DNA of 39,394 nucleotides from Chloroflexota bacterium. GTDB taxonomy: Bacteria > Chloroflexota > Chloroflexia > QHBQ01. Position 1 is the stretch's first letter. Every line of letters begins with the position of its first letter. Positions 28,301 through 31,300 of this stretch are shown piece after piece. The DNA is taken from NCBI GenBank assembly GCA_043754535.1, contig JAYUUN010000062.1:1-39394 (forward strand), given 5' to 3'. The position numbers were made by a program.

Positions 28301-31300
28301 CAGTTAGATTCTCAGCCTCAAACAGCGGCTTTAGCCTGGCGACGAGGCGGCGGGCGGCGGCCACCGAGTTGACAATGATTGCGCCTTTGCTGTTGGGGTA
28401 CTGCTTGTAGAAGGCGATCAGTTCGTCAACATGGTCATTCACCCACTGCTCGGCCTTGTACTCGCCGCTGGTGGCAGCCAGGTTGAGGGTGCAGGGGGCG
28501 AGGATGCGCCGGTAGTTGGGTAGCAGTTCGTCGCTGTACTCACCCACGATTTGCTTGAGGTTGAGGCCGCTAGCCGTCAGCATCTTGGTCATCAGATCGT
28601 CGGGGGTGGCTGAGAGGAAAATGAACTTGCGCTTCATCGCTGCGTAAGCCATGTTGCGCCGCTCAACCGCGACTGCATTGATGATGTTCATGATTGAGAT
28701 TACCTGCGGCGGGCCGAAGATGTGGAACTCGTCGAAGATGTAGTAGTGGAAGAAAGATTGCAGACGATAAACCAGTTCGCGGCGTTGCAGGTAGCCGTAG
28801 TTGAAGCTCATTAGTAGGTGGAAAAGGTCGGGGTTGGTCAGTAGCAGATCGGCATCGTCGAGTAGCCGCTTGACTTCCTCGGCGCGGTTGGTTTCACCGC
28901 TCTCCGACATGAGGCGGCTGATCTCGCTGCCATTCATCGGGCGGATGTTGAGGCGGCGGCTGAACTCGGCTACCTTTGCGCCGACGCTACGCTGCTGGTC
29001 GCGAATCAGTTCGTTGGTGGGGTAGGTCGCGCAGGCGCGGCGGTCGTCAAGCAGGGCTGGCAGGTAGGCCGCGAGGGTCTTGCCGTCACCGGTCATGGCG
29101 GTGTTGAAGATGATGTCCACGTCGGGGTCACGGTAGGCAGCGAGGGTAGCGATCTGATGGCGACCAAGGCGCAAGCCCGCTGGTGCGCCGAGGGCGGCAC
29201 TCTCCTCCGCACTGGCCTCCGCCGAGTAGACTGGCTTGATCGCAAGGCTGAAGTTGTCCACCACTTTCCACCTCCATAGTTTGCTGATTGGATTGTAGCA
29301 CGAGAGCGTTGCCGCAACTGAGGCTACACTGCGTCGGTACAATACATTTTGTAGAGTGCAGCGGCACTGGCCCGCATCCGGGCAACCAGGATGGGTGGCT
29401 CAAGGACGATGACCAACTCGTGGTAGGAGGAGAGTAGTCGCTCGGCGGCCAACAGGTCGCTGACTGCTGCGGTGACAGTGGCGGAGCCGTCGGGCTGTTG
29501 CACTACCTGCTGGTTGGGGAAGTGGTCACTGACTCCACCCCGTGCGATCTCAGCGGCGAGGTGGTAGCGCAGACGGTGGGTGGGGGCTGCTGGGCGGCTT
29601 GGCTGGCTACTGCGCCCCACCAGGGCAGCGGTGCCAGGGCGGATGCGATCAAGCCGGAAGCGTAGCTCCTTCTGCTTGCGGATACTCCAACCGTACAGGT
29701 AAACATGGCCTTCTTCATAGACCAGTGGACGCGGCTCAACGAGGTGGTTACGCTCCTTACCGTCGCGGGGGGTGCAGTAAAGGAACTCCAACTGGCGGCC
29801 TAGCCGAATAGCTTGCTCGATCTGGCTGAGGTTGTGACCATCGGCGTTGCGGTAGTCGGTTGTCTCACCCAGATTGAGGGTGAAGGTCGGCGGACGGTTT
29901 AGCTTCTGCCGTTGAGCAGCGGGAAGGAGAGCGGCCAGATGACTGAGCAGGATGCTGATGTCGTGGGCGTGGATGGTGTGGCTGTCTCGGAAGCTGGTTT
30001 GCAGGGTGGCAAAGGTGACTAGCTGCTCGTCACTGAGGGAGAGGCCAAAGGGGGACTGGTACAGGGCGTATCCACCATAATCGGGTTGATGTTCTATTAC
30101 GTACTTTAGCTGGCGCAAAGCAGCAATGTCACGTTGGAGGGCGCGAGGCAGTTCACGTGCGCTGCTGAATTGTGTTTTGTCGTACGCAAGCTCAAGCAGG
30201 CCATCAGCATTCAGCATAGTGGCAAGCTGGCTGTAGGTCTGGGGGCCACTGTGTAGCAGCACGAGTATCCGCAGACGACGGCGGAAGGCTCGTTCTGTAT
30301 TAGTATCTGTTTTCACACCACACCTCTCATCAAACCCGCGGACATGATGCCCTGTGATGATGATAGTACAGAGTGAGGTAGTTGTCAATGGCAAAACAAG
30401 ATCATCTTGCCGTTCATAACAAGTTTGTGCTTGCTCTTATTGTTTTGGTAAGGTTTTGGTAAGGAGGCTAGCAGATGGATGAGCGATGGGAGGAGCCGGA
30501 GTACGTCCCCATCTCCCGCTTGAATGCTTACAGTTACTGTCCTAGAAGGTTCTACTACGAAGTAGTTCTAGCAGAGATGATCGTTAATGAACACGTGCTT
30601 GAGGGGGAGCTTGCTCATCACCGGGTGGATCAGCCTGGCTATGGCACGCGTGGGGAGAAGCTGCAACTGCGCCGCGTCTACCTGGCTGCCCCAGTGCTGG
30701 GGCTGATCGGCTACTGCGACCTGGTCGAGGCGGAGGGGGCGGTGGGTGACGATCTGCGGCTGCTCGCGCTGGCGGGCAAGCTCTACCCGGTCGAGTACAA
30801 GAAGGGGAAGCTGGGTAAGTGGGTCAACGACCAGGTGCAGCTTTGCGCCCAGGCGTTGGCCCTGGAGGAGACTCTGGCGGTGCCAGTGGGCAGTATCGGG
30901 CGTGGCTATCTCTACTATTTTGGCTCGGCCAGGCGCGACGAGGTAGAGTTGGGGCTTGGCTTGCGGCAGCAGACCTTGACGCTGCTGGCCGAGGCCAAGC
31001 TGGTGGCGACTTTGCCCCAGCCTCCGCCGCCGATTGACAGCAAGCGTAAGTGTCGGGATTGTTCGTTGGAACCGCTCTGCTTGCCCCGTGAGGTGCTGGC
31101 GATGCGGGCCGGAAAGGTGAGGCGTGATGGCGATCTTTTATCTGACTGAACAGCAGGCGTGGGTGGGGCGTGAGGGCGAGTGCCTGGTTGTCCACATCCC
31201 AGAGCGCGACGAGGCAGGCAAGCCGACTAAGAAGGAGCGCAAGAGGCCGATCCCGCTTTTCAAGCTGGAGGACGTGGTCGTGCTGGGCGACATTACGATC

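Follow-up and report, generated by a model that had tools for sequence, protein, structure and literature searches.

A short direct repeat marks promoter regions across one family of Chloroflexota, those of two CRISPR-Cas types among them. Its spacing specificity, intergenic bias, fixed promoter geometry and conservation across genera at the cas4/WYL and cmr1 loci support the survey's finding of one family-wide operator that takes in CRISPR-Cas, though that description needed changes: a second spacing class has been added, the targets corrected and a candidate binder named. We consider it probable, at roughly 70%, that the box is the binding site of an autoregulated response regulator of the OmpR/PhoB family (here P0001), itself probably phosphorylated by the cytoplasmic kinase encoded beside it. 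The genomes themselves show the sites with their geometry and conservation, as well as the family to which the regulator belongs; what the comparison suggests beyond these is that cells probably tune antiviral defence jointly with cell-surface genes. The regulon is new and of a known type, its unusual trait being a repeat period that changes with promoter position.

The window, by which we mean the whole stretch analysed, comprises 39,394 nucleotides of contig JAYUUN010000062.1 in a genome referred to below as G000. Together with G001 to G004 it makes up the five genomes of family f1.

Half-site, periods and promoter geometry

The half-site has the consensus AACCTTACCR and occurs in pairs at a period of 11 or 12, with arrays of three or four half-sites in places and flanks that vary from site to site. 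In G000 (3.87 Mb, with 3135 genes and 87% coding sequence by our own rough gene calls), a search allowing at most one mismatch returned 23 matches with a 3-nt spacer (period 11) and 9 with a 4-nt spacer (period 12). The remaining spacers between 0 and 15 nt gave 0–2 matches each, and reversed and inverted arrangements gave none at this threshold. The 11-bp period described earlier is real and incomplete, the period-12 class having been missed. The strong intergenic bias likewise stands with altered figures: what was given as 24 of 25 matches becomes, at up to one mismatch and against the rough calls, 22 of 23, the sole exception lying within a gene for a glycosyltransferase, at its 3' end. When a half-site matrix built solely from sites of the sister genus was applied at a threshold of at least 20 bits, it found 30 period-11 pairs (28 intergenic) and 13 period-12 pairs (all intergenic), or 41 of 43 between genes, with no more than one pair at any of the periods 9, 10 and 13–16; these pairs merge into 40 loci. 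Tandem direct repeats of about one helical turn, here at periods 11 and 12 only, are the form taken by operators of the OmpR/PhoB type.

The two periods occupy different places relative to promoters, as located with a -10 matrix trained on upstream regions of G000. Read as TGGTAAGG, period-12 pairs stop precisely 9 nt short of the -10 at 7 of 11 loci (background 0.17%) and there sit in place of the -35; no period-11 locus of G000 has this spacing. Period-11 pairs, read in the opposite orientation as CCTTACCA, end 69–73 nt upstream of the -10 at 7 of 30 loci (background 0.8%), an interval picked after the data had been seen. When loci of G000, the sister genus and genus g4 are pooled, 11 of 34 period-12 sites fall at 9 nt and 15 of 36 same-strand -10 matches at 69–73 nt, counts that include some orthologous sites twice. 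A -35 starting with TTG is present in 15 of 18 promoters of the upstream type versus one of seven of the 9-nt type. A few pairs lie 6–9 nt downstream of the -10.

Helical phasing of the upstream sites outside the 69–73 nt peak was considered and rejected (Rayleigh p 0.4–0.8 without the peak, n=12). Boxes of unlike period (11 and 12) face each other about 85–110 nt apart on G002 C20 and C18, G004 C9 and G003 C406; those on G002 C18 flank a tail-collar-domain gene. For the contact between OmpR-type dimers and RNA polymerase, a period that depends on promoter position, 11 upstream but 12 at the -35, would make an instructive example.

Targets at the type I-D locus and elsewhere

The box in the window lies between two divergent cas units, with the following features:

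21207..29342, minus strand: type I-D interference genes cas3', cas10d, cas7/csc2, cas5/csc1 and cas6 (NCBIfam models, all above curated cut-offs)
29324..30316, minus strand: regulator with WYL and WCX domains, whose gene heads the type I-D interference operon (Pfam WYL and WCX, alignment, translation)
30360..30365, minus strand: predicted -10 hexamer TATCAT, separated from the -35 by 17 nt and from the box by 80 nt (from sequence)
30383..30388, minus strand: -35 hexamer TTGACA, promoter of the WYL-interference operon (TTGACA there in 10 of 10 WYL/cas4 loci examined)
30446..30464, minus strand: direct-repeat box of two CCTTACCA half-sites at period 11, or TGGTAAGG-N3-TGGTAAGG on the cas4 strand (same place in G001 to G004)
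30462..30467, plus strand: Shine-Dalgarno sequence AGGAGG of cas4, overlapping the last half-site of the box (from sequence)
30475..32575, plus strand: adaptation genes cas4, cas1d and cas2 (NCBIfam TIGR00372, TIGR04093 and TIGR01573, above cut-off)
32759..33595, plus strand: CRISPR array, 12 copies of a 37-nt repeat followed by a partial 13th (leader without box)

On its own strand the box reads CCTTACCA-AAA-CCTTACCA. It is the sole match in the window at up to two mismatches, against 0.02 expected, so that the search found no second box, the array leader included. The position given by the survey holds; cas4-cas1-cas2 as its only target does not, because the divergent unit WYL-cas3'-cas10d-cas7-cas5-cas6 shares the intergenic region.

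The site is well conserved. In all five f1 genomes a pair sits on the Shine-Dalgarno sequence 10–13 nt before cas4, the distance from box end to start codon being 10–11 nt in G000 and 13 nt in G002 to G004, and 22 nt at the cas4 box of G000 are identical to 22 nt at the gene of the P0001 regulator itself. The divergent TTGACA-17-TATCAT promoter and the box are 80 nt apart in G000, as against 92–93 nt in G002 and G004; the GTG start of the WYL gene in G000 aligns with the ATG of G002 and G004. Six outgroup type I-D WYL/cas4 loci (outside f1, 43–45% identity) lack the pair. The distance from cas4 to the -35 is 134–149 nt in four f1 genomes versus 60–103 nt in these six, as though space had been opened up to accommodate the operator. 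Across the 10 loci no -10 was found on the cas4 strand at a conserved place. In a single family, a horizontally shared type I-D locus has acquired a probable operator at the ribosome-binding site of cas4.

The overlap with the Shine-Dalgarno sequence raises the question of whether the pairs are transcription-factor sites at all, rather than a by-product of ribosome binding, an RNA-level motif or a small repeat element. One half-site can indeed arise in this way, as at the outgroup locus in G010, where the cas4 Shine-Dalgarno sequence forms a single half-site. Most pairs, however, lie upstream of or over the -35 and hence outside transcripts, and the strict periods of 11 and 12, the fixed distances to the -10 and flanks that are unlike between sites also speak against such origins, which we regard as scarcely plausible.

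The neighbouring WYL protein might instead bind the box as a CRISPR-linked operator. The box does lie upstream of the WYL gene, and a WYL protein, Sll7009, is reported to repress a CRISPR system in Synechocystis (10.1101/2023.12.07.570523). Yet the operator does not travel with the WYL/cas locus (none of the six outgroup loci has it), while three g4 genomes (G006, G018 and G020) have a pair and no WYL match at E ≤1e-15. In addition, 37 of the 40 loci of G000 are not CRISPR-linked. We rejected this reading as very improbable.

The sites reported before both cmr1 genes of type III-B were confirmed. The pair lies 63 nt from the -10 at both promoters of G000 and 72 nt in G002 and G004, and a cmr1 site is present in three of the five f1 genomes. 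No pair was found at the cmr1 of G003, the cmr1 fragment and second cas4-cas1 of G001, the extra cas1 loci of G002 and G004, or the csm-type contigs C46 and C75 of G000. With CRISPR promoters making up three of 40 loci, the regulon is a general one that took in cas genes rather than one dedicated to CRISPR.

Two targets named earlier, pmbA and murJ, had to be given up: the sites lie at the 3' ends of both genes and face a BlaI/CopY-family gene and a CAP-domain gene. Among the sites fetched and the matches listed, the sister genus has a homologue with a box for about 10 of the 40 loci. These are the P0001 regulator, a small helix-turn-helix gene (HTH_17), cas4/WYL, cmr1, a lone receiver protein, a GAF kinase, the BlaI/CopY operon, the CAP protein and two secreted-looking proteins of unknown family. 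Other boxes face genes for S-layer-homology, lamin-tail, subtilase, amidase, glycosylation, sigma-factor, chemoreceptor and small-GTPase proteins. A surface-protein theme in the 9-nt class was seen by inspection only; by a crude heuristic, signal-peptide-like proteins are not enriched among all genes pointing away from sites (9 of 58 versus 398 of 3077, p 0.55). A tRNA scan of 11 loci found one tRNA-Glu, adjoining the site at C93:50451.

Several neighbouring features were noted along the way. An NB-ARC/STAND-TPR protein is encoded directly 3' of the CRISPR array in the window (33834-36470). In G003 a stretch of about 45 nt is duplicated before the WYL gene at a contig end (C553:1-200), and there the WYL gene is directly followed by a cas10d-like gene, unlike in G000. 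At C27:2766-5362 of G000 a second cmr1 (416 aa, GTG at 2766) and a shortened cmr2 stand head-on to the complete type III-B operon and adjoin a 25-repeat array. A Card1-type CARF gene and two unannotated genes (L177:12721-14885) are divergent from cmr1 and share its boxed intergenic region. On C51 of G000 (L175:395-2608) a box precedes a gene for a 738-aa sigma-70-like protein, whose best NCBIfam model is the anti-phage-associated MzaA at 122 of 800 bits, far below the cut-off. Strong boxes at C33:3438 and C3:7864 of G000 have no protein gene called on the facing side; the former has a consensus TTGACA/TATAAT promoter 70 nt downstream, which may serve a small RNA or a missed small gene.

Range of the motif and a candidate regulator

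The counts of 23, 19 and 28 reported for G000, G001 and G002, with none for the reversed control, were reproduced, and the same search gave 15 matches in G003 and 25 in G004. With a spacer of 3 or 4 and no mismatch, the five f1 genomes contain 31, 30, 36, 26 and 43 sites (a range of 26–43), with 0–1 for the reversed control. Elsewhere in the class, 38 of 216 other genomes have a match (seven in G009, 3–5 in three g4 genomes and at most three in the rest), as do 15 of 400 other genomes in a sample of the phylum, with a maximum of two. Since these are draft genomes and samples, absence is to be read as "not enriched in those searched". That two other families have none holds roughly at period 11, where none of nine f3 genomes and five of 17 f2 genomes have a match, one and scattered in each of the five; it fails at period 12, where genus g4 of f3 has a pair at the regulator promoter. 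The f2 singles did not prove to be one conserved site in the loci inspected. The seven matches of G009 are mostly accounted for by a tandem 12-nt unit, GCTTACCACAGG, at C2:342277-342320 and four other places. The full regulon is found in five genomes, a narrow range that limits its reach. Three genomes are marked unpublished: G012 supplies one of the 11 regulator promoters discussed below and one of the six outgroup WYL loci, and G015 and G007 enter the f2 background counts; no conclusion rests solely on them.

P0001 (G000 C128:2031-2741) is an OmpR-type response regulator that is itself a target, with a pair between its -10 and its start. Its receiver (REC, PF00072, E 1e-27) and Trans_reg_C (PF00486, E 6e-19) domains place it in the OmpR/PhoB family, and its best solved relative is MtrA (E 4e-43). 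The phospho-acceptor Asp, switch Thr and Lys (D54, T81 and K103) are invariant in 11 of 11 orthologues. Named families do not claim it: scores in bits against cut-offs are 180/300 for MtrA, 168/296 for PhoB, 163/330 for RpaB, 153/340 for YycF (WalR) and 137/325 for KdpE, and none of the best 25 named models listed is above its curated cut-off. A kinase gene with the architecture REC-GAF-PAS-HisKA-HATPase starts 6 nt downstream; its Pfam hits include no membrane-sensor domain.

A single-sequence search found orthologues of P0001 in all five f1 genomes, in six of seven g4 genomes (56–60% identity) and in none of 17 f2 genomes; a profile search, in which the 11 seed sequences score high by construction, found none in 26 f2 genomes, and f2 has no motif enrichment either. 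In f1 and g4, all orthologues but one (10 of 11) have a pair in the promoter of their own gene. It follows the -10 in G000, G001, G002 and G004 and precedes it by 9 nt in the six g4 genomes; the orthologue in G003 has none directly at its promoter. The pattern derived from f1 marks the P0001 promoter in four of the six g4 genomes with an orthologue, where it accounts for one of one match in G006, one of four in G014, one of five in G018 and one of eight in G020. A pattern tuned on g4 promoters, and hence partly circular, picks out the P0001 site and nothing else in G006 and G010; it has no match in G008, a genome in which the search for the regulator failed to find it.

In the database the clade of P0001 comprises 18 clusters above a clear score gap, from Chloroflexia wherever a taxon is given, and one relative of the f11 type bears the name Herpetosiphon. 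A tree places the f1, g4 and f11/f15 regulators in one clade (97/97, with its internal order unresolved). The f11/f15 regulators sit behind a kinase, that of f11 being homologous to the P0001-adjacent one (E 1e-76), and no site was seen there; five f11/f15 genomes gave 15 motif matches versus 31 for the reversed control. The presence of an orthologue is thus no guarantee of the regulon. The g4 genomes with the regulator have only 0–5 exact sites, so the large regulon follows family f1 in its distribution; the HTH_17 gene does likewise.

These observations also bear on whether the box is bound by a third regulator, perhaps one of the SARP type or another OmpR paralogue, with P0001 and HTH_17 as mere targets. 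The f11/f15 orthologues without a motif would fit this, as would similar pairs before a different OmpR-type gene in two f10 genomes. On the other hand, the site at the P0001 promoter is kept across two families, even as the only match in 5.7–5.8 Mb, and seven other OmpR paralogues of G000 have no pair within 300 nt upstream. We judge a third binder improbable. The f10 pairs (G130 C109:26593 and G097 C182:17318) are perfect or near-perfect, of period 11, at an orthologous place 600–900 nt upstream of the gene, and possibly belong to a related small regulon.

HTH_17 is a somewhat likelier competitor. This small MerR-like/excisionase protein (84 aa, G000 C37:17792-18046) may bind the repeats as head-to-tail oligomers of the BldC type, alone or for one of the periods, with P0001 as a target or partner. 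The gene is present in all five f1 genomes and in none of 35 other genomes of the order, which matches the large regulon; its own promoter has a period-12 pair in all five, and in G002 and G003 it is divergent from the response regulator gene. Matches to PF12728 and TIGR01764 and the predicted fold agree with the stand-alone MerR-like winged helix-turn-helix of about 60–80 aa that defines the BldC family: the model (mean pLDDT 74) resembles MerR-type domains, BldC ranking 14th (E 0.01, rmsd 1.6 Å over 52 columns). BldC of Streptomyces is reported to bind variable direct-repeat arrays (PMC5859096), and arrays are found here too, with the fold relative HTH_17 as a conserved target. However, the BldC repeat described there, AATTXXXX(C), is a loose 9-bp element recognised mainly through DNA shape; the box here, a near-invariant 8-mer, does not fit that consensus. 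The HTH_17 site is also in the 9-nt position common to many non-regulatory targets, and none of the seven g4 genomes has the gene, although g4 has the pair at its response regulator promoter. We therefore read HTH_17 as a target and possible feed-forward partner; that it is the binder seems unlikely, though worth keeping in view.

Mode of action and comparison with known systems

If P0001 is the binder, its phosphorylated dimer would bind the pair head-to-tail, with position setting the outcome. Period-12 pairs 9 nt before the -10 would take over from the -35 and stimulate transcription via sigma (class II), their targets being largely secreted surface proteins and the small BldC-like gene. 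Reversed period-11 pairs about 60–90 nt before the -10 would activate from upstream (class I), at both cmr1 promoters, the GAF kinase, the receiver protein and the BlaI/CopY operon. Pairs just after the -10 or on a ribosome-binding site would repress, as at the regulator's own gene in f1. In the window the box covers the cas4 leader and Shine-Dalgarno sequence with the regulator gene's 22 nt, so cas4-cas1-cas2 is most likely damped, and the box may also boost the divergent interference operon, 80–93 nt upstream of whose -10 it lies. Given the intact WYL promoter at six boxless outgroup loci and a cas4 promoter that could not be placed, the sign at this site is a guess. The lack of a membrane sensor in the kinase would point to an internal cue or a phosphorelay.

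A more elaborate, speculative and rather doubtful possibility is a two-tier switch specific to this family, in which P0001 reads the half-site at two periods for two modes of activation, or shares it with an induced BldC-like protein. Such a feed-forward pair would drive a lifestyle or developmental programme that remodels the surface, raises III-B and I-D interference and holds down spacer acquisition.

The closest parallel in geometry is PhoP of Salmonella, whose box is reported in direct orientation 12 nt before the -10, reversed at 30–58 nt upstream, and repressing near the -10 (PMC3335776). Both systems have a direct-repeat box over the -35 (class II) that is reversed further upstream, an autoregulated gene and horizontally acquired targets taken into the regulon. 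Unlike PhoP, the system described here has another half-site, distances of 9 and about 71 nt, a cytoplasmic hybrid kinase and a repeat period that changes with position (12 at the -35, 11 upstream). The ArcA box of E. coli shares the 10-bp elements, the 11-bp period and the multi-repeat arrays (2–5 in ArcA; PMC3798270). ArcA is described there as mostly a repressor, and 12-bp spacing abolished occupancy of the third repeat at putP, whereas 12-bp pairs are a conserved class here; that one dimer uses both periods is thus not a given.

At the level of titles and abstracts, with RegPrecise, subscription journals and supplements outside the scope of the search, we found no published account of this motif or of such a regulon in Chloroflexota, nor, at the same level, a described two-component regulon for class Chloroflexia. 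A sharp motif, a candidate regulator-kinase pair and fixed geometries could here be obtained from sequence alone for seemingly uncultured hosts.

Few organisms are known to place CRISPR-Cas under the control of host signalling. RpaB is reported to activate a type III-Dv cas operon and not its array (10.1101/2023.12.07.570523; PMC6525291). As with RpaB and its HLR1 site, the candidate here is an OmpR-type global regulator of the host with an octamer direct repeat of TTAC core whose position sets the sign, and the cas promoter has the box and the array leader does not. HLR1 differs in its period of 10, with (G/T)TTACA(T/A)(T/A) octamers 2 nt apart rather than CCTTACCR with a spacer of 3 or 4; G000 has no period-10 pairs at 15 bits or above. 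Unlike the RpaB case, two CRISPR types (I-D and III-B) are under one box in family f1. Two types are also controlled by one two-component system, PpoS/PpoR, in Marinomonas mediterranea (PMC8523701), which according to the abstract is BarA/UvrY-like and acts with Csr elements rather than through an OmpR-type direct-repeat operator.
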